A stretch of DNA of 64,000 nucleotides from Candidatus Nomurabacteria bacterium (GCA_023267215.1 JAHFNS010000002.1:256892-320891), one strand, 5' to 3'. Shown: positions 5,871 to 49,868, counted from the stretch's first letter. Made by a program: numbers and translations. The notes: generated by a model not told the origin, from the sequence alone.

Positions 5871-6635
5871 ATGATAAAAAAAGAGCAACTTATTGACTTG
5901 GGGTTTGGAGACAAAGAAGCGAGTGTTTATTTGGCTTTACTTGAGCTTGGCCCTTCCACTACCACAGAAATATCAAGACGAGCAGGCATAAATCGCACGA
6001 CTGGATATGATATTTTGGAATCTTTAGCAAGTGATGGATTGATTAATCCAATTAGGGATACAAAAATTCAGAAATACTCAGCAGAAAACCCAGAGAAAGT
6101 CATTTCTTTTTTAGAAAATAAAATAAAACAGACTGAAGAAAAATTAAAACAGGCACATTTGTTGTTGCCAGAGCTTCTTTCTGTCTTTAATGTGAAAGAA
6201 AAACCAAAAGTTAAATTTTTTGAAGGAATTGAGAGAGTGAAAGAAGCATTTGAAGATACCTTAAATACAAAAAGAGAAATATTAGCTTATGCTGTCGGTG
6301 CTGACATGTTTGAAACTGTCGGGCGCGAATATTTTAAAGAATATACCAGAAAAAAGGTAGAAAAAAATATTCATGTTAAAGTAATTGCTCCAGATGATGA
6401 GGAAAGTAGGGAGGTTGTCTCTAGGGATGCTCTGGAATTAAGGGAATCTGTGCTTATACCAAAAGAAAAATTTTACTTTACAACAGAAATCAACATCTAC
6501 AACAATAAAATGATTATTATTTCTTGGAAAGAAAAATTTGCTGTGATTGTAGAAAGTGAAGAAATTGCCAACGCACAAAGAAGAGTTTTTGATCTCGCGT
6601 GGCTAGGGGCAAAACAGTTGTCAAATAGGAGTTAA
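5871..6635 (+). CDS. TrmB-family (winged-HTH) transcriptional regulator
   Basis: N-terminal HTH ASVYLALLELGPSTTTEISRRAGINRTTGYDILESL, typical of TrmB. Confidence 0.6.
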   Translation: MIKKEQLIDLGFGDKEASVYLALLELGPSTTTEISRRAGINRTTGYDILESLASDGLINPIRDTKIQKYSAENPEKVISFLENKIKQTEEKLKQAHLLLPELLSVFNVKEKPKVKFFEGIERVKEAFEDTLNTKREILAYAVGADMFETVGREYFKEYTRKKVEKNIHVKVIAPDDEESREVVSRDALELRESVLIPKEKFYFTTEINIYNNKMIIISWKEKFAVIVESEEIANAQRRVFDLAWLGAKQLSNRS

Positions 6636-6671
6636 TATTTTGGATTTTAGAAATTGTAGTATAATAAATTT

Positions 6672-7514
6672 ATGAAAACTGAAATAATAAAATCACTTGT
6701 AAATAATTTTGAATCCTATGCTCACAAAACTAATGAAGGGATAGAGTTTTGGTTAGCTAGAGATTTACAGCAACTTTTGGGTTATAGGAAATGGGATAAC
6801 TTTTTAACTGTTATTACTAAAGCAAAAACAGCTTGTGAAATAACGGGGCATAAAGTTACCGATCATTTTGCCGACGTCGGGAAAACGATCCAAATGCCCA
6901 AAGGGGCACAAAAAGAGATTCAAGATTTAATGCTTACTAGGTATGCTTGTTATCTTATTGCTCAGAATGGAGATTCTAGAAAAGAAGAAATTGCTTTTGC
7001 CCAAAATTATTTTGCTATTCAAGCTAGAAAGTTTGAAGTAATTGAGAAAAGAATACAAGAATTTGAAAGAGTTAGGGCTAGACATAAATTAATTGAAACA
7101 GAAAAAGAATTATCTAGTGTTATTTATCAACAAACAAAAAATGATAAAAATTTTGGATTAATTCGTAGTAAAGGAGATAAAGCCTTATTTGGATATACAA
7201 CTCAAGAAATGAAAAGTCGGCTAAAAGTTCCTAGCAGTCGTGCTCTAGCAGATTTTCAACCGACTATATTATTAAAAGCCAAAGACTTTGCTACAGAAAT
7301 AACCATTTTTAATACAAAAAATAAAGGATTAAAAACTGAACAGGCAATTTCAGAAGAGCATATTATAAACAACAGAAGTGTTCGGAAAACTTTAATTAGT
7401 CGTGGTATTCGTCCAGAAATTTTACCTGCCGAAGAAGATATAAAAAAAGTTGAAAGGAAAATTGAATCTGAAAATAAAAAAAGTTTAAAAAAACCAGACA
7501 AATTGAAAACCTAG
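6672..7514 (+). CDS. dinD: DNA-damage-inducible protein D-like (Bro-N domain)
   Basis: The N-terminal half aligns with E. coli DinD: FWLARDL..LGYRKWDNF..AKTACE.TGH...DHF...GAQKE..D..LTRYACYLIAQNGD...IAFAQNYFAIQ. Confidence 0.7.
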   Translation: MKTEIIKSLVNNFESYAHKTNEGIEFWLARDLQQLLGYRKWDNFLTVITKAKTACEITGHKVTDHFADVGKTIQMPKGAQKEIQDLMLTRYACYLIAQNGDSRKEEIAFAQNYFAIQARKFEVIEKRIQEFERVRARHKLIETEKELSSVIYQQTKNDKNFGLIRSKGDKALFGYTTQEMKSRLKVPSSRALADFQPTILLKAKDFATEITIFNTKNKGLKTEQAISEEHIINNRSVRKTLISRGIRPEILPAEEDIKKVERKIESENKKSLKKPDKLKT

Positions 7515-20353: not shown

Positions 20354-20881
20354 ATGCAACTTTTTGATATACTTAAACGGCATATGAAAATCACTGAGAA
20401 AAATACAATGTATGAGGGGAATGAATATATTTGTGAATACGAAGACGTAGATTCTTTTGATAATCTGGATTACTCTTTTTGCAAACAAACTTATGCAGTT
20501 TGTTTATGTGACGGAAAGATGGTGATAGCATATAGAGGAAAAAAGAAAAAATGGGGGCTTATAGGAGGACATATTGAAAAAGGAGAAACTTTTGAACAAA
20601 CATTAAAGAGAGAAATAAAAGAAGAATCAAATATGGAAGTTTTAAAATTTCTTCCAGTTGGATATCAGAAAGCCACGGATACGAGGGACAATAGTTTCGT
20701 TTATCAACTACGTTATGTATGCATTGTTCGTCCGTATGGGCCATTTGTTTCTGACCCTGATGGTTCTATTGTTGAAATTAAATTAATTGATCCGAAAGAT
20801 TATAAAAAATATTTTGATTGGGGAAAAATCGCAGACAGAATAATAGAACGAGCTTTGGAACTAAAAGATAAATTAAAATAA
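20354..20881 (+). CDS. NUDIX hydrolase
   Basis: Nudix box GGHIEKGETFEQTLKREIKEESN. Confidence 0.65.
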   Translation: MQLFDILKRHMKITEKNTMYEGNEYICEYEDVDSFDNLDYSFCKQTYAVCLCDGKMVIAYRGKKKKWGLIGGHIEKGETFEQTLKREIKEESNMEVLKFLPVGYQKATDTRDNSFVYQLRYVCIVRPYGPFVSDPDGSIVEIKLIDPKDYKKYFDWGKIADRIIERALELKDKLK

Positions 20882-21053: not shown

Positions 21054-21953
21054 ATGCCAAAGTTTAGACCTAAAATATCACGTTATGCAAATTTGTATTT
21101 TTTCATTCAAAATTTATCTGAATGGCATTTCTCAAATCGTAAAAAACATAATAAAGAATGGCGTAATGAGTTAGCTTTTTCTGAAAAGGTTGAACTTTGT
21201 TTACAAGAATTTAAAGAGATACATAAAAAATATTCATTTGGTGATGAATATCTTGGACGACCATTTTTTCTTTACGATAATCCATGGTCTATGATAAAAA
21301 CAATTGTTGGCGAAGATGATTATGTTAAAATAAAAAATATTTTTTCAACACTTGAGCCATATTTTAATACTCTTTATATAAAGGATGAAATAATTTTAAA
21401 AAAGTGGGCGATACTCATTTCAGAACCAGAATTTTTGGAAAAGGCTTCTTTTATAAATGAAACCCTTGCGAGTTTTTATGGATGTTCTCTATATAATGAA
21501 GATTGTACAATATATCTATTATTATCTACAAAAGAAAAAAATGGTGGAACATCGGGAACTATAAATGATCATTCTGTCACTCTTGAATTGAGCCAGATAT
21601 CTCTGGAATCAAAAGGACAAGTACTCAAAGTATTATGGCATGAATTGATTCATCTATATTTTAGAAATAACACATTTTATCCTCTTTTGGAAAAGTATAC
21701 AGATAACAACTTAGAAGCTATGGGTAAAATTGACGAGCTCATCGCCTCTTCACTTCTTCCGAATGGTTTATTAAAAGAAAATACAATAACCTTGGTTAAT
21801 GAATCAAAAACCCCTGAAACTTTTAACGCTCGCATTATCTCAGATAAGATTATATTCATTCAAAAATTAATTTATCCATATTTGAAAGAAAAAAGGACTG
21901 TTGATGCGAAACTTGTAGAAAAACTTTGTGTGATATATGGTTACAATAAATAA
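21054..21953 (+). CDS. Hypothetical protein with an HExxH motif (possible metallopeptidase)
   Basis: WHELIHLYF; no other recognisable domain. Confidence 0.35.
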   Translation: MPKFRPKISRYANLYFFIQNLSEWHFSNRKKHNKEWRNELAFSEKVELCLQEFKEIHKKYSFGDEYLGRPFFLYDNPWSMIKTIVGEDDYVKIKNIFSTLEPYFNTLYIKDEIILKKWAILISEPEFLEKASFINETLASFYGCSLYNEDCTIYLLLSTKEKNGGTSGTINDHSVTLELSQISLESKGQVLKVLWHELIHLYFRNNTFYPLLEKYTDNNLEAMGKIDELIASSLLPNGLLKENTITLVNESKTPETFNARIISDKIIFIQKLIYPYLKEKRTVDAKLVEKLCVIYGYNK

Positions 21954-21993: not shown

Positions 21994-22143
21994 TTAATCA
22001 CTTGGTCCGTCACTATGTCCATTATCCCAATCGTCCCAATCTCCAAATTTAGCAGAACATTCGGTATTGGAAGAGCTATTACTACACTCGCTCATTCGAG
22101 ATAAAGCACCTGCGATTGCTTCTTGGCCTATGTCTTTTTCCAT
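21994..22143 (-). CDS. Candidate 49-aa Cys-containing precursor peptide (MEKDIGQEAIAGALSRMSECSNSSSNTECSAKFGDWDDWDNGHSDGPSD), not in the ORF track
   Basis: A consensus AGGAGG lies 8-9 nt upstream of the ATG at 22141-22143. It sits 37 nt downstream of the radical-SAM/SPASM gene on the same strand. The two Cys lie in a Ser/Asn-rich core. Confidence 0.4.
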   Translation of the reverse strand: MEKDIGQEAIAGALSRMSECSNSSSNTECSAKFGDWDDWDNGHSDGPSD

Positions 22144-22180
22144 AGGATGTTTCCTCCTGTGTTGTTTTTGATGAGGTTAA

Positions 22181-23275
22181 TTATGGTGTTGCACTATTTA
22201 CATATGATGATAAATAGTCAAACACCTCCTTCCTTGATTTACAGAAAAAATATTTTCCATTTATATCTCCAACTCTCTGAGCAGTACAACCGTTGTTGCA
22301 TGCATTCTTCTGTTCACATGAAATACAGTCATCTGGTAATTCACGGCTTTTACATATAAAATTTTGCCATTTTTTATCGTGGAAAATTTCTTGCAGAGTC
22401 TGTTTTGTTAAAGTTCCAAAACAAAAATTGCTATCTCCCGACAAACGATCACATGGATATATAGAACCATCATAATTAACAGTATAAAATGTATGACATG
22501 AACCATTAAATGAACAAGTACTTGCACGTTTTTCATACAGACCTGCCAGATAATTATCTATCTCTCTAATACGTAAAGAGTTATCGTTTTTTTTAATCCA
22601 CAGATCAATGTATTTTTTAAAAATCTGAGTGAGCATATCATTAGACAAGCTTTGTCCGCTCATGTGCTTGTTAGATTCTAAAATATCAAGATATGGATTA
22701 ATACCAAAACTATTTAGACCCATATCATCAACGAAGAACTTGAAATCTTCTTCTATACGACAGATATTTGTTTGTGTGATAGTCTGTATCACACTTAATT
22801 TTATGCCATACTTACGAAGTATTTTTATGCCACGTAATGTATTATCAAATGTTCCGTTTCCATTGTGAGTTATGCGGAATTGATTATGACTTTTTGCACT
22901 GCCATCTAAACTTATTCCAACCCTAAAATCATTTTCTTTTAAAAAAGCTGCCCATTTATCCGTAATTAATGTTCCATTAGTTTGTATAGAATTACGAATA
23001 GCTCTATTGGGAGCAATTATTAATTTTTGCAGACGGATTACTTCTTGGAAGAAGTCTAGTCCAGCCAAAATAGGTTCTCCTCCGTGCCATATAAAGGACA
23101 GATTACCGTTTACGATTTTTGTGTGTTGTCTTATAAATGATTCAAGTATTTTTAAATTCATCTTTTTTGGAGATGTTTGATTAAGATGATGGTAAAAACA
23201 ATAGCCACAATTATTATTACAATAATCACCCACAACTTTAATAATTGGGGTAAGGTATAGATTATCAGTTTCCAT
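22181..23275 (-). CDS. Radical SAM / SPASM-domain enzyme (anSME/peptide-maturase type)
   Basis: CNNNCGYC (CxxxCxxC) cluster, a GGEP motif, and C-terminal SPASM cysteines (C..C...YDGSIYPCD; CISCEQKNACNNGC). Confidence 0.8.
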   Translation of the reverse strand: METDNLYLTPIIKVVGDYCNNNCGYCFYHHLNQTSPKKMNLKILESFIRQHTKIVNGNLSFIWHGGEPILAGLDFFQEVIRLQKLIIAPNRAIRNSIQTNGTLITDKWAAFLKENDFRVGISLDGSAKSHNQFRITHNGNGTFDNTLRGIKILRKYGIKLSVIQTITQTNICRIEEDFKFFVDDMGLNSFGINPYLDILESNKHMSGQSLSNDMLTQIFKKYIDLWIKKNDNSLRIREIDNYLAGLYEKRASTCSFNGSCHTFYTVNYDGSIYPCDRLSGDSNFCFGTLTKQTLQEIFHDKKWQNFICKSRELPDDCISCEQKNACNNGCTAQRVGDINGKYFFCKSRKEVFDYLSSYVNSATP

Positions 23276-23354
23276 TTTATGCTTCCTTCTTTTTAATTTT
23301 CAAATAATGTTTATTTTAGTATACCAAATATAAGGTTATTTGTCCATAGGAACG

Positions 23355-23400
23355 TAGCTAAAATGCCAAAAAAGCTAGTGTTTACGTGGACTTATCCACA
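23355..23400. repeat. ~46-bp repeat AGCTAAAATGCCAAAAAAGCTAGTGTTTACGTGGACTTATCCACA (second copy at 27270-27316)
   Basis: Near-identical copies upstream of the rSAM gene and upstream of the 1591-aa gene. It ends in the DnaA-box-like 9-mer TTATCCACA. Confidence 0.5.
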
Positions 23401-23524
23401 ATTTTTTATGAGGTAAAAATTATAGAGTATTTGTTCTTGTTTTTTTTGTTTGATTTGATATACTAAAAATACAAATGGACGTAAGTCCTCCGAGAAATCC
23501 CGTCGTAAGACGGGATTTCGCTTT

Positions 23525-23911
23525 TTATGGGAGAAATTCTTTTATTTTAAAAGCTATATCTTTAAATTCATTTTCTGAAATATTTTCTATTTTTCGAAGT
23601 AAGCGTTTTGCACTTATTAATCTTATTTGAGAAAGAATCACAAAACTCCCACTAGTTTTTAGTTTATGATGGTATAAATTATTTTTTATCACAGAAGTTA
23701 GAGGTACTATTACAGCGATATCTCTATTGAATTTTTTTAAAATTAAAACTGGTCTTTCAAAATTCTCATTTTTCCCATCTTGTTCATATCCAATATTTAC
23801 ACCTAAAGAACACCACCAGATTTCTCGTTCGTGAAAATAGAATTTTTTTGGTTTCTCTAAAGAATTTGTATTCTTTTTTATTTCGTTCCACTTATCAAAA
23901 TCTTTTTGCAT
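23525..23911 (-). CDS. PemK/MazF-like toxin-fold protein; no cognate antitoxin ORF seen
   Basis: REIWWCSLGVNIGYEQDGKNENFERPVLIL resembles the MazF/PemK signature (IWWVDLGP..G.EQ.G.RP.LVIS). Confidence 0.5.
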   Translation of the reverse strand: MQKDFDKWNEIKKNTNSLEKPKKFYFHEREIWWCSLGVNIGYEQDGKNENFERPVLILKKFNRDIAVIVPLTSVIKNNLYHHKLKTSGSFVILSQIRLISAKRLLRKIENISENEFKDIAFKIKEFLP

Positions 23912-24104: not shown

Positions 24105-25028
24105 CTATTTAATCAGCAACATTTTTTTGGTTTCTACTACTACAGATCCTGCTTGGAGTCTGTAGAGGTACATTCCACTTGGTAAATTTGAAGCATTAAA
24201 TGCAACTTCATAATTACCAATTGGTTTGAATTCGTTAACTAATGTTGCAATTTCTTTTCCCAACATATCGTACACCTTAAGTGATACGAATTGCGAGTTA
24301 GGAACAGAAAATTGAATCTTTGTTGCAGGGTTGAATGGGTTAGGATAATTCTGTGACAATTCAAATTTGGAAGGGATATTATTTCCTTCAATTTTTGTTA
24401 TCGACATATTATCAATCACAGTTTTTTTGCCCAAAGAGATGATACTTAAATCATCAAAATCGATTGCGTACATTACATACGTACCTGTTTCAAGGGATAT
24501 ACCCCAAACTTCAATGTAAACTTTATTGAAATTTGGCAATCTCTTTTTGGTGTCCGTCATGTCAATTTTAATCTCCTGCCATTCATTACCTACAGCAGGA
24601 TTTTTGATTGTGATTTGACAGTACGGAGATGAAACATAATGATTGTTGTATTGCAAAGCTATTCTGATCGTTAACTCAGATAGCCCACTTGCACCAGATA
24701 TCCTAGAGAGGAAACTAACAAAATCTGGTGTTTCAAGGTATCCTCCATTTAAACTGAATGTGGATGCCTTAGAAAAATCTTTCGGGTAATTATTTTGTAT
24801 GGAACTTTCGTTCCCTTTTAATGTGGTTTTTCCCTCTCCCACAAATGTTACAAAACCACTACCCAAGACAGACTTTGTGATAAATACGGGGTTTCCGTAA
24901 ATATCATACTCATTCGAGAAACTTCCCCAGCCATTCGCATCAGCTGGGTCAACTCTAATGGTTTGCTGAGCTGTTACCAACCCAACAAAAATTAAAACTA
25001 AAAACAGTGTGTTAAGTAACGTTTTCAT
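24105..25028 (-). CDS. Secreted protein with a T9SS-type C-terminal sorting domain (Por_Secre_tail-like)
   Basis: Signal peptide MKTLLNTLFLVLIFVGLVTAQ. The C-terminus LSQNYPNPFNPATKIQFSVP..LKVYDMLGKEIATLVNE..SGMYLYRLQAG matches the TIGR04183-type CTD pattern. Confidence 0.7.
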   Translation of the reverse strand: MKTLLNTLFLVLIFVGLVTAQQTIRVDPADANGWGSFSNEYDIYGNPVFITKSVLGSGFVTFVGEGKTTLKGNESSIQNNYPKDFSKASTFSLNGGYLETPDFVSFLSRISGASGLSELTIRIALQYNNHYVSSPYCQITIKNPAVGNEWQEIKIDMTDTKKRLPNFNKVYIEVWGISLETGTYVMYAIDFDDLSIISLGKKTVIDNMSITKIEGNNIPSKFELSQNYPNPFNPATKIQFSVPNSQFVSLKVYDMLGKEIATLVNEFKPIGNYEVAFNASNLPSGMYLYRLQAGSVVVETKKMLLIK

Positions 25029-25367: not shown

Positions 25368-26000
25368 TTATTTCATTTTTAATAATTCTCTTAAATATTC
25401 AAAATCTCTAAAATTGCTTCCAGCAAATTGTTTTATTTCTTTTGCTGTTCGTTCACTTCTACTTAATATGATTATTTCTTTTTTATTTTCCTTCAAATAT
25501 TTTAATACAGGTAAAAAATCTCCATCCCCAGACAAAATAATAGCTTTATCAAAATTATCTTTTTCTTTCATTAAATGAAATGCCATATCAACATCACAAT
25601 TTGCTTTTCGTTTTGTTGTACCATCTTCCTGCTCATACATTTTTATTGGTTTTAAATATAAAGAGTATCCAAATTTTAGAAGTTTTAGATAAAAACGTAT
25701 TCTTTGTAAATGTTTACCAATAAGAAATATTTGAGCTTCATTTAAATGTTTAGTTTTGTCTTTTATTAAACTTACTAAATAAGTTTCCAATTTATTTATT
25801 GGAACTGTCTCTTCTTTTTGATAATCATATTGGAAATTATATATTTCAACTCCTCCAAAATAAAAAATAGGACCTACATTATATTTATTTTTTAAATAAT
25901 TAAATAATTTTTCATAATCAATTTTCCAACCAAGAGATTTTTCTCCACCATAAAAAAGATTTGAGGCGTCAATAAAAGCAAAATTATTTTTTCTTTCCAT
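25368..26000 (-). CDS. NYN/LabA-like (DUF88) domain protein
   Basis: FIDASNLFYGG N-terminal motif and AIILSGDGDFLP motif. Confidence 0.6.
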   Translation of the reverse strand: MERKNNFAFIDASNLFYGGEKSLGWKIDYEKLFNYLKNKYNVGPIFYFGGVEIYNFQYDYQKEETVPINKLETYLVSLIKDKTKHLNEAQIFLIGKHLQRIRFYLKLLKFGYSLYLKPIKMYEQEDGTTKRKANCDVDMAFHLMKEKDNFDKAIILSGDGDFLPVLKYLKENKKEIIILSRSERTAKEIKQFAGSNFRDFEYLRELLKMK

Positions 26001-26180: not shown

Positions 26181-27095
26181 TTATTTTACTAACGACATTT
26201 TTTTTGTTTGCATAAAGTTACCTGCTTGTAACCTATAGAAATAAGTACCGCTTGATAACTTAAGTTTGCCGGCATCGAATGTTGCTTCGTAAATTCCAGC
26301 AGGTTTTTGCTCGTTGTCAACGAGTGTTGCTACTTCTCTACCTTGTAAATCGTAGACCTTTAATGTAACAGGTCCAGACTCAATTGGTACGAAGTATTGA
26401 ATCTTTGTTGCAGGGTTGAATGGGTTAGGATAATTCTGTGACAATTCAAATTTGAAAGGGATATTATTCCCTTCAATTTTGGTGATCTGAAAATTATCAT
26501 AGACAATCTCATTCCCGAGACTATCTACTCCAATTAAATTTCTTATGTCTATACTTGCTCCGACATATGAAATTTCAGAAGACATGACCCAAAATAAGAA
26601 AGTCATGGAATAGAAATTTTTTATTCTATTTGTCACAGCATCTGTTGGAAGCTTTATTTTCTTCCATCCATCTACCACTGGATTTGTTTCATTCACACTT
26701 ACAGTTTTATTGTAAATAGAATACCCGTCACCAGTAATTTCAAGACCAATAGCAATTTCTGATACATTTCCAACTAATCCAGAAACTCGATAATCAAATC
26801 CGACGTATTTTTGGATTTTTTTAGTTTCAGTTGCAGAAAAAAATCTTTTTTTATAATTGGTCATTAGATATACTTGTCCATTTAAATATGTATTACCAAA
26901 TGTATTGAATGTTTGGTAACCACTTTTAATTTGTGAGTATGTTTTTGAAGCATCATACAACAAGTTACCATGGATATCGTAACCTGGTAGACACTCCCAA
27001 CCATTTACAGCAGTTGCATCTGTTACTTTTGTCTGAGCTGTTACCAACCCAACAAAAATTAAAACTAAAAACAGTGTGTTAAGTAACGTTTTCAT
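26181..27095 (-). CDS. Secreted protein with a T9SS-type C-terminal sorting domain; paralogue of 24105..25028
   Basis: Identical signal peptide. C-terminus LSQNYPNPFNPATKIQYFVP..LKVYDLQGREVATLV..SGTYFYRLQAG. Confidence 0.7.
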   Translation of the reverse strand: MKTLLNTLFLVLIFVGLVTAQTKVTDATAVNGWECLPGYDIHGNLLYDASKTYSQIKSGYQTFNTFGNTYLNGQVYLMTNYKKRFFSATETKKIQKYVGFDYRVSGLVGNVSEIAIGLEITGDGYSIYNKTVSVNETNPVVDGWKKIKLPTDAVTNRIKNFYSMTFLFWVMSSEISYVGASIDIRNLIGVDSLGNEIVYDNFQITKIEGNNIPFKFELSQNYPNPFNPATKIQYFVPIESGPVTLKVYDLQGREVATLVDNEQKPAGIYEATFDAGKLKLSSGTYFYRLQAGNFMQTKKMSLVK

Positions 27096-46397: not shown

Positions 46398-49300
46398 ATG
46401 GAAGAAAAAACAAGCAAATCTGAAACAGTGCTTAGAGAAGAGCGGGTTTTGGAATTTTGGAAGAAAAATAATATTTTTCAGAAATCTTTAGAAAAAGAGT
46501 CACCGCTCGGTGAATTTGTTTTTTACGAAGGTCCGCCTACAGCCAATGGCAAGCCGGGTATTCATCATCTAGAAGCTCGAGCATTCAAGGATGCAATTCC
46601 TAGATACAAGACGATGAGAGGGTATCACGTCGGCCGCAAGGGTGGCTGGGATACTCATGGCCTACCAGTAGAACTTCAAGTGGAAAAAAAGTTGGGTCTA
46701 GATTCTAAAATTGCTATCGAAAAATACGGTATTGCGAGATTCAATCAAGAGTGTAAAGAAAGTGTTTGGCAATACACAGACGACTGGAGTAAATTTACTG
46801 AACGCATAGGCTACTTTGTTGATCAAGAAAATGCATATGTCACATATCACAATTCATACATAGAGTCTGTCTGGAATGTTCTGAAGAAAGTTAACGAACA
46901 AAAATTACTCTATAAGGATTATAAGGTTGTTCCATGGTGTCCTAGATGTGGAACAGTTCTTTCTTCTCATGAGCTTGCTCAAGGATATGAGAATATAAAA
47001 GATTTATCAGTTTATGTGAAGTTTAAAATAAAAAATCAAGACAATACTTTTATCCTCGCTTGGACGACGACTCCTTGGACATTGCCGGGCAATGTCGCTC
47101 TGGCTGTCGGGGAAAAGATCGATTATGTAAAGATAGAAAAAGAAAAAGAATTTTTAATATTAGCTAAAGCACGTTTGTCTGTAATTGATGGTGAATATAA
47201 AGTAGTAGAAGAATTTAAAGGGAAAGATTTGCTCGGATTAGAATACGAGCCTCTTTATCCATTTTTACAAGAAACTATTTCGGGAAAAGAAAAAGAAAAA
47301 ATGGATAAAGCATATAAAGTATATGCAGCTGACTTTGTGACCACAGAAGATGGTACTGGGGTGGTGCATACCGCAGTGATGTATGGTCAGGATGACTTCG
47401 TGCTAGGAAACGAGATAGGCTTGCCGAAGCATCATCTTGTAGGCCTCGATGGTAAATTTTTAGAGGGCACCGGATTTTTAGAAGGTAGATTTGTAAGAGA
47501 CGAAGAAGTGGCTGTGGACATTATTAAAGATTTAGCTAATCGTCCTACAGGTCCTCTCTTGTTTAAAAAAGAAAGGTACGAACACTCATACCCGCATTGT
47601 TGGCGTTGTCATACTGCACTCATTTATTACGCTCGAGATTCTTGGTACATAAAAATGTCTGATCCAAAGATCAAAGAAAAAATGATAGAGGAGAATAAAA
47701 GTATAAATTGGGAACCATCCCATATTCGTGATGGACGTTTTGGTGAGTGGTTGAAAGATATTAAAGATTGGGCAATCTCAAGAGAAAGATATTGGGGTAC
47801 GCCTCTTCCTGTCTGGACTTGTGACACTTGTAAAAATATGGAAGTTCTAGGAAGTGTAGAAGATATAAAACAAAGAACTAAAAAATCTGGTAATAAATAT
47901 TTTGTCATGCGACATGGGCAGGCAGAAAATAATATTGAAGATGAAAATAGTATTCATCATAAGGAGCTCAATCATATAGCAAAACTTACAGAAAAAGGGA
48001 AAGTGCAAGTTTTAGAAAATTCTAAAAATTTTAAAGAAAAGATAGATATGGTATTTTGTTCACCATTTCAAAGAGCGAAAGAAACTGCAAAAATAGTTTG
48101 TGAGCAAATTAATTTTCCATTTGATAAAATTGTTTATGATAGTCGAATACAAGAATGGGAATCTAGTTCTCTTTTTGAAGGTAAGAAAAAAGCTGTATTT
48201 AATAAATATTATGATGTAGATTATTTAGATAATCCGACTGAAACATTGCCTGACGGAGAAAGTTTTTCAGAATTAGTGAAAAGAGTTGGTGATTTTATTT
48301 ATGAATTAGAAACAAAATACTCAGGTAAAAATATTTTAATTTTTGGACATGGAAGTGCCACCAATGCTTTGAGTTTTGTAGTTCAAGGATTCTTATTGAA
48401 TTCTTTGTCTAGTAAAAATAATCTATTTAAAGAACTTCAAAATGCAGAAATTAAAAAATTTGATTTTGTTTTACTTCCACACAATGAAAATTATGAATTG
48501 GATTTACATAGACCATATGTTGATGAAATAGAACTTATTTGTAAATGTGGAGGAAAATTGGTACGCACAAAAGAAGTCATGGATGTATGGCTCGATTCTG
48601 GTGCTATGCCTTTTGCTCAGAGTCACTATCCTTTTGAAAATAAAGAATGGGTGGACGGAGTAGGTTACCCAGCAGATTTTATTTCTGAAGCCATAGATCA
48701 GACTCGTGGATGGTTTTACACCTTGCATGCAGTTGGAGTTTTGATGGGACGTGGAAAAGCATTTAAAAATGTTATTTGTTTAGGACATTTACTTGATGCA
48801 AAAGGGAAGAAGATGTCTAAATCTTTAGGTAATGTCGTCGACCCTTGGGTAATGATAGAAAAATATGGAGCGGATACGTTACGACTATGGATGTATTCTG
48901 TAAATCAGCCAGGTGAGTCTAAAAATTTTGATGAAAAGACAGTGCTCGAACTTCATAGACAAATATTCGGCCTACTTTACAATGTTTTGGTTTTCTATGA
49001 TCTCTATCGAGATCCTCAATTAGAAGTTTCTGAGTACAAAAAATCAGATGATGTTTTAGACCAATGGATTTCAGCTAGACTTGATGAATTGATAAAAGTT
49101 TCTACAGAAAATCTAGACAATTACAAACTTCTCGAACCTACGAGAGCTGTTCGTGATTTCATCGGTGATCTTTCTACTTGGTATCTACGTCGATCACGCG
49201 ACAGAATAAAAGATGGAGACAAAGGTGCAAAACAAACCTTATATTATGTCTTGAAAAATATTGCGAAGATCATGGCGCCATTTGCCCCGTTTGCAGCTGA

Positions 49301-49868
49301 AGATATATGGTTGAAATTGAAAAATGAAAAAGATGAAGAAAGTGTACACTTAGCAAGTTGGCCTACGGTAGAAAAAGTTGATGAAAAAATAATAGAAGAT
49401 ATGGAGAAAGTTCGAGAGATAGTTTCTCTTGGGCTCGAAGCTAGACAAAAATCAGGAATAAAAGTTCGTCAGCCGTTAGCTACTTTAAAATTTAAAGTTC
49501 AAGGAAAGCTTTCAGATGAACTGACTTCTCTTATCAAAGATGAAGTGAATGTGAAAGAAGTAGTCTTTGATGAAAAAATAGAAAATGAAGTCTTTCTTGA
49601 TACAAAAATCTCAGAAGAACTAAAAGAAGAGGGAAGCTATCGCGAACTCGTGAGAGGAATCCAAGATATGCGTAAAAAAATGGGGCTTACTCCTAGTGAC
49701 GTTGTCTCTATATCTGTCGACACCAGTGATGAAGGTAAAAAATTGATTCAAAAGTTCGAAAAAGATCTCTCAAAAGTAATCCTTGCTTCAAAAATAGAGT
49801 TTAAACCAAACGAAGGGGAAGAAATAAAAGTAGACGAACTAGTATTTAAAGTAAAAATAGAAAAGTAG
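46398..49868 (+). CDS. ileS: Isoleucine--tRNA ligase carrying an in-frame ~200-aa histidine-phosphatase (PGAM-like) domain insertion (about 47890-48500)
   Basis: Class I HIGH (PPTANGKPGIHHLE), the editing domain, WAISRERYWGTPLP, KMSKS (GKKMSKSLGN) and an anticodon-binding C-terminus. The inserted block has RHGQAENN, LTEKGKVQ, CSPFQRAKETA and ILIFGHGSATNAL, and lies between VLGSVEDI and DLHRPYVD. Confidence 0.85.
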   Translation: MEEKTSKSETVLREERVLEFWKKNNIFQKSLEKESPLGEFVFYEGPPTANGKPGIHHLEARAFKDAIPRYKTMRGYHVGRKGGWDTHGLPVELQVEKKLGLDSKIAIEKYGIARFNQECKESVWQYTDDWSKFTERIGYFVDQENAYVTYHNSYIESVWNVLKKVNEQKLLYKDYKVVPWCPRCGTVLSSHELAQGYENIKDLSVYVKFKIKNQDNTFILAWTTTPWTLPGNVALAVGEKIDYVKIEKEKEFLILAKARLSVIDGEYKVVEEFKGKDLLGLEYEPLYPFLQETISGKEKEKMDKAYKVYAADFVTTEDGTGVVHTAVMYGQDDFVLGNEIGLPKHHLVGLDGKFLEGTGFLEGRFVRDEEVAVDIIKDLANRPTGPLLFKKERYEHSYPHCWRCHTALIYYARDSWYIKMSDPKIKEKMIEENKSINWEPSHIRDGRFGEWLKDIKDWAISRERYWGTPLPVWTCDTCKNMEVLGSVEDIKQRTKKSGNKYFVMRHGQAENNIEDENSIHHKELNHIAKLTEKGKVQVLENSKNFKEKIDMVFCSPFQRAKETAKIVCEQINFPFDKIVYDSRIQEWESSSLFEGKKKAVFNKYYDVDYLDNPTETLPDGESFSELVKRVGDFIYELETKYSGKNILIFGHGSATNALSFVVQGFLLNSLSSKNNLFKELQNAEIKKFDFVLLPHNENYELDLHRPYVDEIELICKCGGKLVRTKEVMDVWLDSGAMPFAQSHYPFENKEWVDGVGYPADFISEAIDQTRGWFYTLHAVGVLMGRGKAFKNVICLGHLLDAKGKKMSKSLGNVVDPWVMIEKYGADTLRLWMYSVNQPGESKNFDEKTVLELHRQIFGLLYNVLVFYDLYRDPQLEVSEYKKSDDVLDQWISARLDELIKVSTENLDNYKLLEPTRAVRDFIGDLSTWYLRRSRDRIKDGDKGAKQTLYYVLKNIAKIMAPFAPFAAEDIWLKLKNEKDEESVHLASWPTVEKVDEKIIEDMEKVREIVSLGLEARQKSGIKVRQPLATLKFKVQGKLSDELTSLIKDEVNVKEVVFDEKIENEVFLDTKISEELKEEGSYRELVRGIQDMRKKMGLTPSDVVSISVDTSDEGKKLIQKFEKDLSKVILASKIEFKPNEGEEIKVDELVFKVKIEK

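Follow-up and report, generated by a model that had tools for sequence, protein, structure and literature searches.

A stretch of 64,000 nucleotides from a Candidatus Nomurabacteria bacterium (GCA_023267215.1 JAHFNS010000002.1:256892-320891), referred to here as the window, carries a small cassette composed of a gene for a radical S-adenosylmethionine (rSAM) enzyme with a SPASM domain, a gene for a 49-residue peptide that follows it on the same strand, and a convergent gene for a protein with an HExxH motif. Together these three very probably form a dedicated module for the maturation of a RiPP (a peptide made by the ribosome and altered after translation), typical of Patescibacteria. The window is chromosomal and AT-rich (33.9% G+C), and its housekeeping genes include those for PNPase, RNase Y, NusA, H+-PPase, RecJ, ArgRS and IleRS. 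The features of the locus are, in window coordinates:

22181-23275, minus strand: rSAM/SPASM gene, 364 amino acids (Pfam Radical_SAM 4.9e-20, SPASM 8.2e-10)
21994-22143, minus strand: precursor peptide gene, 49 amino acids, MEKDIGQEAIAGALSRMSECSNSSSNTECSAKFGDWDDWDNGHSDGPSD (match to the peptide hidden Markov model (HMM), 8.7e-24)
22158-22153, minus strand: Shine-Dalgarno sequence AGGAGG, 9 nt 5' of the peptide ATG, read directly in the sequence
22009..22047, minus strand: core region of the peptide, F33-D45, with the triads F-G-D / W-D-D / W-D-N / (G) / H-S-D
21054-21953, plus strand: HExxH gene, 299 amino acids, convergent with the peptide gene
21981-21956, minus strand: intrinsic terminator with an 11-bp stem and a T-run, directly 3' of the peptide stop and between the two convergent genes
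23318..23346, minus strand: promoter-like site TGGACA-17-TATACT with an extended TG, 5' of the rSAM gene, from a consensus scan only
23525-23911, minus strand: PemK/MazF-fold gene, 128 amino acids (Pfam PemK_toxin 2.3e-13)

The peptide ATG lies 37 nt 3' of the rSAM stop codon, as an earlier, sequence-only reading of this DNA had noted together with an AGGAGG 8-9 nt upstream; the spacing is 9 nt. Judging from this anatomy, the rSAM and peptide genes would be cotranscribed, and their transcript would end at the hairpin after the peptide gene. Terminator-like sites number 10 in the region against 1.4 expected from shuffles, and the site at 23318..23346 is a weak candidate for the start of the rSAM-peptide transcript. 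Whole-window scans returned no tRNA gene and no Rfam family at the gathering threshold in the 64 kb, so that by these scans the 249 nt 5' of the rSAM gene contain neither a riboswitch nor another RNA element. An HMM search of the window found no second copy of either the peptide gene or the rSAM gene, and PADLOC returned only generic rSAM (viperin) and NYN matches there.

The 49-residue open reading frame (ORF) is a real gene that is selected at the protein level. The segment W.DWDNGH.D was compared in 13 distinct nucleotide versions, and at its eight invariant residues codon positions 1 and 2 have no variable column and codon position 3 has 6. Its earlier description as unannotated is true of its name and not of its existence, as public gene calls include the ORF as a nameless 49-residue product. 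A search with an alignment of six peptides yielded 28 clusters at 90% identity, and the peptide profile, run against 1.84 billion representatives, gave 27 matches (50% identity representatives), a number that reflects how few of these peptides have been called and is a poor guide to how large the family really is. The peptide has no match in NCBIfam (E up to 10) or Pfam, and a literature search found no paper with DWDNGH, WDDWDN, GALSRMS or GALARMS in a relevant sense.

The window peptide is laid out as a leader motif (A9-M17), a variable linker (S18-K32) and a conserved core, FGDWDDWDNGHSD (F-G-D-W-D-D-W-D-N-G-H-S-D). Family alignments give the leader as (K/R/E)-A-I-x-G-A-L-x-R-M-(S)-x-x-(S)-N, and the division proposed in the sequence-only reading, in which a Ser/Asn-rich segment was the core, has given way to this one. 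The closest subfamily shares the core (F/W)-x-(D/Q)-W-x-D-W-D-N-G-H-x-D, in which W36, W39 and N41 are invariant and conservation reaches 90% or more at D38, H43 and D45; of the three X2 positions, D37 (D/G/S/P) and S44 (S/T/A/V) are freely variable. Asp makes up 17.7% of core residues. Diverged subfamilies, collected from a metagenome scan with the HExxH protein, from the loci of rSAM homologues and from the profile search, have cores as different as GWDDQWGNWDDLGGDDPGWGDV, DNWGNWPDWSDSSDFPNWEDIG, EWDQWDQWDDGTEWTD, GWRNWEDWDDYENSGAW and NWSDTYPFDNYDDFVDFPD, and what they have in common is a run of aromatic-X-(Asp/Asn) triads. This register survives the replacement of Trp by Phe, Tyr or His, as in NWSDTYPFDNYDDFVDFPD of loci L153 and L010 and in a Tyr version in L013. 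Over 57 distinct 26-residue C-termini, an aromatic residue at i with D/N at i+2 was observed 196 times, where within-peptide shuffles give 65.5±6.3 (z = 20.6, a value inflated because the shuffles treat related sequences as independent, although the pattern still recurs in the diverged subfamilies). The combination of an aromatic residue with D/N at i+3 is depleted (9 versus 62.6), and consecutive aromatic residues are spaced by three in 110 of 153 cases and by two in 2.

Conservation of the three-gene unit was assessed from both of its ends. The enzyme-side sample is composed of nine loci, the window and the contigs of eight rSAM homologues with 44-75% rSAM identity, and the order is kept in all nine: the rSAM gene, a same-strand ORF of 45-70 residues, and a convergent gene for an HExxH protein of about 297 residues (27-70% identity). 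The remaining neighbors are unrelated between genomes. The sequence-only reading had proposed a RiPP-type cassette of an rSAM/SPASM enzyme with a dedicated precursor, and had named the conservation of the small ORF beside rSAM homologues as the check; a peptide gene follows the rSAM gene in nine of nine loci, and the proposal stands. The same reading understated the HExxH protein, which it treated as an unassigned bystander. Strand and motif are as it described them, but the protein is the third conserved component of the cassette. From the HExxH side, a metagenome scan with this protein gave 50 non-redundant loci with enough flanking DNA, 33 of which have a convergent rSAM gene at 40% identity or more, with a match to the peptide HMM in 29 of those 33; four more have a distant rSAM gene (37/50 with any rSAM), and 13 have none.

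An outgroup was obtained by scanning contigs with back-translated patterns from the rSAM alignment (QTNATL, WHGGEP), motifs that are common to anaerobic sulfatase-maturating enzymes (anSMEs). Among the matches listed, 79 of 80 loci are relatives with at most 39% identity, and within these 79 anSME-like loci neither the peptide nor the HExxH gene was found except in the sister loci L013, with a Tyr-based triad peptide (YDDYTYPDIQYGDEYLD) and a recognizable leader, and L022, with an H/Y-x-D peptide and a distant HExxH homolog. Sister rSAM clades (31-37% identity) have 3' peptides with W-D-K, H-x-D or W-x-K units. L010, with 49% rSAM identity, is a member of the family. The cassette itself recurs across Zambryski-, Wolfe-, Pace- and other Parcubacteria-type genomes, in which rSAM homologs are named only "radical SAM protein" and the partner genes are "hypothetical" or unnamed. 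The HExxH protein falls into 119 clusters, likewise unnamed or "hypothetical", the named ones belonging to Zambryski-, Wolfe- and Pacebacteria or the "Patescibacteria group".

Several loci met in these scans deserve separate description. Short ORFs with aromatic-X-X repeats lie 3' of sister rSAM genes at L012 3022-3198, L013 5113-5286, L022 5158-5406, L021 5189-5275, L029 5056-5139, L054 5138-5278 and L069 5139-5300. The L012 peptide, from Bacteroidota, ends in HQNWNNGGFTNHH; those of L021 and L029, of 27-28 residues and from Patescibacteria/Saccharimonas, end in VASW(T/I)KC; and those of L054 and L069, from Parcubacteria, have PWDK repeats. These ORFs behind anSME-like rSAM genes may be further undescribed precursor families, and "WHGGEP" sister enzymes with differing 3' peptides fit a wider diversification of peptide maturases based on the anSME fold. 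L010 (CAYWLA010000049.1) is a 9-kb contig with a complete cassette, including a peptide with an F/Y-x-D core and an HExxH protein at 32% identity, that was binned into an "uncultured Methanosarcinales archaeon" metagenome-assembled genome (MAG). It is probably a mis-binned Patescibacteria contig, and otherwise a case of horizontal transfer; Patescibacteria have been reported to parasitize methanogens.

Other loci lack parts of the unit. L105, L108, L091 and L099 keep a close HExxH homolog (60-67% identity) and have no rSAM gene, and at L105 1834-1989 and L108 1979-2062 leaderless or truncated peptide remnants persist (...GWQQWGDWDNGHADS; MAWDNGHADS), which suggests that the cassette has decayed there and perhaps that the HExxH protein functions independently. 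At L122 1773-3890, L145 549-2614 and L167 333-2505, distant HExxH homologs (29-35%) are convergent with a different rSAM clade, of the CNSDCCYC/CNFNCVYC type and with 28-29% identity to the window enzyme; here the ends of the two genes abut or overlap, with no recognizable precursor in between, and these loci may represent a sister system whose peptide is encoded elsewhere. Just beyond the HExxH gene, at L002 6296-9074, lies an apparent second peptide-modification cluster with a DUF2268 (predicted Zn-protease) gene, a Peptidase_MA_2-like gene, ORFs of 55 and 46 residues and a radical SAM gene. The HExxH gene is directly preceded by a NUDIX hydrolase gene in the same orientation, at 20354-20881 (plus strand) in the window and at 6300-6758 in the Wolfebacteria locus L009, and two NUDIX genes lie near the cassette at L002 1097-2146; the adjacency may be coincidence, NUDIX genes being common in these genomes, or a loose association. 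The window has a gene for a NYN-domain (LabA-like) nuclease (25368-26000, minus strand) at a distance of about 2 kb from the cassette, and another NYN gene adjoins the HExxH gene at L170 5411-5989.

The enzyme has the expected rSAM [4Fe-4S] motif, C19-x3-C23-x2-C26, and eight auxiliary-cluster cysteines, at 254, 260, 275, 317, 320, 326, 330 and 345, that are invariant in 60 homologs, consistent with the CxxxCxxC motif and C-terminal SPASM cysteines noticed in the sequence-only reading. It retains the Cys-Asp pair ("YPCD", aligned with anSMEcpe) and has no RiPP recognition element (RRE) domain: its alignment with anSME starts at residue 9, and anSME has no RRE extension. The best NCBIfam match is TIGR03942 (anSME), with 273.8 bits against a curated cutoff of 349.45; six other family members score 262.6-286.8 bits, while the sulfatase-adjacent controls L078 and L025 reach 401.9 and 406.3. 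A confident grouping with anSMEs, which the sequence-only reading had named as a possible refutation, is not reached at these scores. The residue before GGEP is His in 119/119 family proteins versus Gln in 7/7 sulfatase-linked anSMEs, a position that we take to be the active-site residue Q64 of anSMEcpe. On the substrate side, the absence of a C/S-x-P-x-R motif from the peptide was confirmed, no window ORF of at least 250 residues has a sulfatase signature (C/S-x-P/A-x-R), and no sulfatases were seen among the called genes of the related enzyme-side loci. As the cutoff and substrate tests both fail, the enzyme is, by its sequence, not a curated anSME. Its predicted structure superposes over the full length both on anSME and on the triceptide synthase ChlB.

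Triceptides are peptides in which an rSAM three-residue cyclophane-forming enzyme (3-CyFE) links an aromatic residue to the Cβ of another within an Ω1-X2-X3 motif (PMC11499958; PMC12912966). The window core and the family cores contain this motif, with Ω aromatic, throughout their triads. The motif, its conservation and the fold of the enzyme together point to triad cyclophane formation of a triceptide-like kind as the probable chemistry. The leader motif AIxGALxRM would dock directly on the enzyme, a notion that follows from the missing RRE domain. A 5'-deoxyadenosyl radical would then take a Cβ hydrogen from the third residue of a triad (D38, N41, D45 and perhaps D35), the resulting carbon radical would add to the ring of the first (W36, W39, H43 and perhaps F33), and an auxiliary cluster would take up the electron as the ring rearomatizes. 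The predicted outcome is the formation of three or four three-residue cyclophanes, with 2 Da lost per cross-link, at W36-D38, W39-N41, H43-D45 and possibly F33-D35, as motif, conservation and fold suggest. The HExxH protein would subsequently process the modified peptide, most likely by removing the leader, alternatively by hydroxylation.

Several points weigh against this reconstruction. All of the cross-link chemistry is deduced from sequence, and the inflated z score given above belongs under the same heading. No curated cyclophane-synthase cutoff is reached by the enzyme (GrrM/OscB 144/310, YhhB 133/445, XyeB 100/450), and its match to PDB sequences is far better for anSME (1e-56) than for ChlB (1e-15), the only solved triceptide synthase. 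No rSAM gene is found in 13 of 50 HExxH loci, so the HExxH protein may serve some function by itself. The motif WxDWDNGHxD is near-invariant in the closest subfamily, which is more like the precursor of a cofactor or signal than a diversifying antimicrobial. Finally, promoter-like matches in the region are no more frequent than the shuffled expectation, and the promoter call is no better than chance.

Within the HExxH protein, H196-E197-x-x-H200 and E228, a Glu 28 residues after the HExxH, are invariant across the family, as is the motif YFFxQNLSxWH of an N-terminal helical domain. The protein model (predicted local distance difference test score, pLDDT, 92.3) suggests a zincin-like fold with remote structural matches only, in which the HExxH helix and the downstream Glu ligand appear to be placed as expected of gluzincins. 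A Foldseek search of the model against PDB gave nothing significant, and the Pfam comparison gave only a sub-threshold SprT-like match. Neither the protein nor three diverse homologs matched NCBIfam at E up to 10, in a library copy whose inclusion of the model for α-ketoglutarate-dependent HExxH (αKG-HExxH) enzymes is unconfirmed, and a profile search of PDB sequences returned a chance match only and did not retrieve the αKG-HExxH structure 8s5f. The gluzincin-like ligand set, the top structural matches, the missing family match and the largely anaerobic hosts together favor a leader peptidase, which is the likelier function of the protein.

It is possible, though rather unlikely, that the HExxH protein is instead an Fe/αKG-dependent β-hydroxylase acting on Asp, Asn or His of pre-formed cyclophanes. 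The core offers many candidate sites, being full of Asp at X2 and X3 positions. Hydroxylation requires O2 and αKG, which makes it questionable in mostly anaerobic Patescibacteria that lack the tricarboxylic acid (TCA) cycle, and the empty NCBIfam search, with the library reservation just given, and the lack of any Pfam match beyond the sub-threshold SprT-like one speak against it. Known αKG-HExxH enzymes are recurrent partners of rSAM cyclophane synthases and hydroxylate Asp, His, Gln, Phe and Pro in RiPPs, including Asp and His in cyclophane peptides and sometimes only after the cyclophane has formed; one of them is also able to hydrolyze peptide bonds (PMC12636437; PMC13060819).

The same precursor-enzyme pair could also carry out another radical chemistry on the Trp/Asp/Asn/His core. 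The options are daropeptide- or dynobactin-like ether or C-N links, Trp-Trp links between residues three apart, larger rings, or modification without a cross-link, such as epimerization or oxidation of Asp/Asn; even taken jointly, they appear unlikely. DynA is the second-best curated match of the enzyme (229.6 of 450 bits for the window protein, 220-243 bits across the family), DarE and DarW follow with 140-169 bits, and the chemistry of this enzyme clade is not predictable from sequence. Moreover, 3-CyFEs and daropeptide maturases are reported to have a common origin (PMC12912966). Yet genuine anSMEs score 191-235 bits on the DynA model, and its score thus does not discriminate. The daropeptide motif is Ω1-X2-Ω3 (PMC12912966), whereas aromatic residues in this family are three apart and scarcely ever two, and the observed conservation, with an aromatic residue in position 1 and D/N in position 3, matches an aromatic-to-Cβ(i+2) link. 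Membership in the daropeptide/dynobactin group was rejected on the DynA score, on that for DarE (141.6 of 650) and on the aromatic spacing of two in 2/153.

A further idea concerns the purpose of the product and is compatible with the cross-linking chemistry favored here. By analogy with PqqA/PqqE or MftA/MftC, the product might serve inside the cell as a conserved factor (for instance a redox cofactor, a peptide that binds metal or a symbiosis signal) rather than as a secreted bioactive peptide, and the HExxH protein would excise it. The almost invariant WxDWDNGHxD of the closest subfamily and a core rich in metal-ligand residues (Asp, plus His) are in line with this, as are the position of the module among housekeeping genes of small genomes and the finding that no transporter or immunity gene is conserved near the cassette among the related loci. 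But distant subfamilies have quite different cores and differing triad counts, in contrast to PqqA and MftA with their fixed reactive residues, and the decay in some lineages (L105 and L108, with HExxH kept and rSAM lost) indicates a dispensable function, so that an intracellular factor seems improbable. A broader proposition, doubtful as a whole, joins several of these elements: the products would be a poly-cyclophane class of acidic Trp/Asp peptides not known before, and a lineage-wide trait of Patescibacteria, in which biosynthetic gene clusters are usually reported to be lacking, with a conserved physiological rather than antibiotic role, be it metal binding, redox activity or signaling between episymbiont and host, while the HExxH protein would found a new RiPP-tailoring family distinct from the known leader peptidases and the αKG-HExxH hydroxylases.

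Cys-to-carbon thioether bridges of the sactipeptide, ranthipeptide or SCIFF type, to which the sequence-only reading had likened the enzyme, are very improbable. The window peptide does have Cys20 and Cys29, and the enzyme has weak sub-threshold matches to PapB (149/340), the SCIFF maturase (83/425) and CteB-like enzymes, with StsB likewise below cutoff (83/625); PapB and QhpD link a Cys sulfur to the Cβ of Asp, and the window core is rich in Asp. But beyond the leader motif 29 of 58 peptides lack Cys altogether, 26 contain a single one and only 3 contain two; the cysteines that do occur fall in the variable, unaligned linker, as do both of those in the window peptide, and it is Trp, Asn, Asp and His that are invariant. 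Assignment to a sacti-, ranthi- or SCIFF system was rejected, there being no conserved Cys donors, no maturase cutoff reached and no RRE. Least credible of all is an ordinary anSME acting on a sulfatase encoded elsewhere, with the small ORF and the HExxH gene as bystanders, which can claim the retained Cys-Asp pair but is opposed by the family scores below cutoff, the His before GGEP, the 64-kb window free of sulfatase signatures and the fact that peptide and HExxH gene accompany this clade rather than generic anSME-like loci.

The PemK/MazF-fold gene upstream of the rSAM gene had been counted as part of the cassette. Fold, upstream position and the lack of any plausible antitoxin ORF beside it are as first described, but the gene adjoins the cassette only in the window genome: it is 249 nt from the rSAM gene, with a hairpin at 23494-23519 in between, and of the eight other enzyme-side loci only L001 has a PemK gene, which stands on the opposite strand at a distance of about 2.4 kb and is accompanied by an 82-residue partner of its own. 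The protein has an N-terminal extension of about 28 residues (MQKDFDKWNEIKKNTNSLEKPKKFYFHE...) and no PADLOC or PDB-sequence match. With unconserved linkage and no adjacent antitoxin, it was rejected as a cassette member and is regarded as an unrelated neighbor. Farther along, two paralogous proteins of about 305 residues (24105-25028 and 26181-27095, both minus strand) share an identical signal peptide, MKTLLNTLFLVLIFVGLVTAQ, and end in Por_Secre_tail, the sorting domain of type IX secretion (Pfam 3.7e-11 and 1.3e-8), which is unexpected if the genome is that of a Patescibacterium, as such an organism should have neither an outer membrane nor a type IX secretion system. Within the analysis, it is only the homologs of the cassette genes that place the window in this group. 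At 46398-49868 (plus strand), an isoleucyl/class-I tRNA synthetase of 1156 residues contains an inserted His_Phos_1 domain (residues 502-660, 1.2e-22) between both halves of its catalytic domain.

The cassette is most likely a new triceptide-like family, a description of which was not found in the literature. The enzyme superfamily and the probable chemistry are known; the acidic W-x-D/N precursor family and the HExxH partner family are new, and the host lineage is unusual. The genomes of Patescibacteria (the candidate phyla radiation) are tiny and tend to yield little in genome-mining surveys, one of which reported no biosynthetic gene clusters from its Patescibacteria MAGs (PMC11613949). No paper was found that links triceptides or SPASM peptides with Patescibacteria, although the clade may already be listed in similarity networks. 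If the predicted chemistry is true, an acidic Trp-x-Asp/Asn branch joins the triceptide class together with a new HExxH partner family, peptidase or oxidase, and there is a handle on the role of small modified peptides in ultrasmall episymbiotic bacteria. More generally, an anSME-like protein whose score lies slightly below the sulfatase-maturase cutoff can be a peptide maturase, with a precursor that can be located some 40 nt downstream of its gene.

Compared with known systems, the enzyme resembles anSMEs (TIGR03942; PDB 4k36-4k39) in its length, its three Cys sets for [4Fe-4S] clusters and its Cys-Asp pair, and differs from them in its score below cutoff, its dedicated small peptide without C/S-x-P-x-R and its His in place of Gln before GGEP. 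With DynA, DarE and DarW, the maturases of dynobactin and daropeptides, it shares Trp-containing cores modified by an anSME-like rSAM enzyme without an RRE, and Trp, Asn and a His-Ser-X unit also occur together in the core of dynobactin. However, the DynA score lies far below the cutoff of 450 and is equaled by true anSMEs; compared with daropeptides, the cassette has no Ω1-X2-Ω3, its core is longer and acidic, its hosts belong to other taxa and no BamA-type target is implied.

The HExxH protein invites two comparisons. With gluzincin RiPP leader peptidases (M1, e.g., the EryP/AplP type) it shares the invariant HExxH and downstream Glu, but it is very remote from them, with 10-16% identity, no significant Foldseek match and no peptidase family HMM, and it has only 299 residues and a different N-terminal domain. 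With the αKG-HExxH β-hydroxylases (the ChlH domain of ChlB, BpmH, PflC/PosC and PesO) it shares the HExxH, the zincin-like fold and a place next to a RiPP precursor and an rSAM cyclophane-type enzyme. It differs from that family (IPR026337) in giving no sequence-family match, subject to the library reservation made above, in not being fused to the rSAM enzyme, in its extra N-terminal helical domain with YFFxQNLSxWH and in being equally similar to genuine peptidases.

Triceptide pathways differ from the cassette in several respects. The enzyme falls below every curated 3-CyFE model, with a similarity to ChlB of only 1e-15; the third position of its triads is nearly always Asp or Asn in an extremely acidic core, whereas published examples are HTK, HAA, HNR, YDR, YSK, HAS and FTK (PMC11499958; PMC12912966); the HExxH partner comes from another sequence family and is encoded separately, by a convergent gene; and the hosts are Patescibacteria, with cross-links that are predicted from genes alone. 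Even so, these pathways are probably the closest to the cassette in their working: the precursor motif fits, and the ChlB system, like the cassette, includes an HExxH-fold partner.

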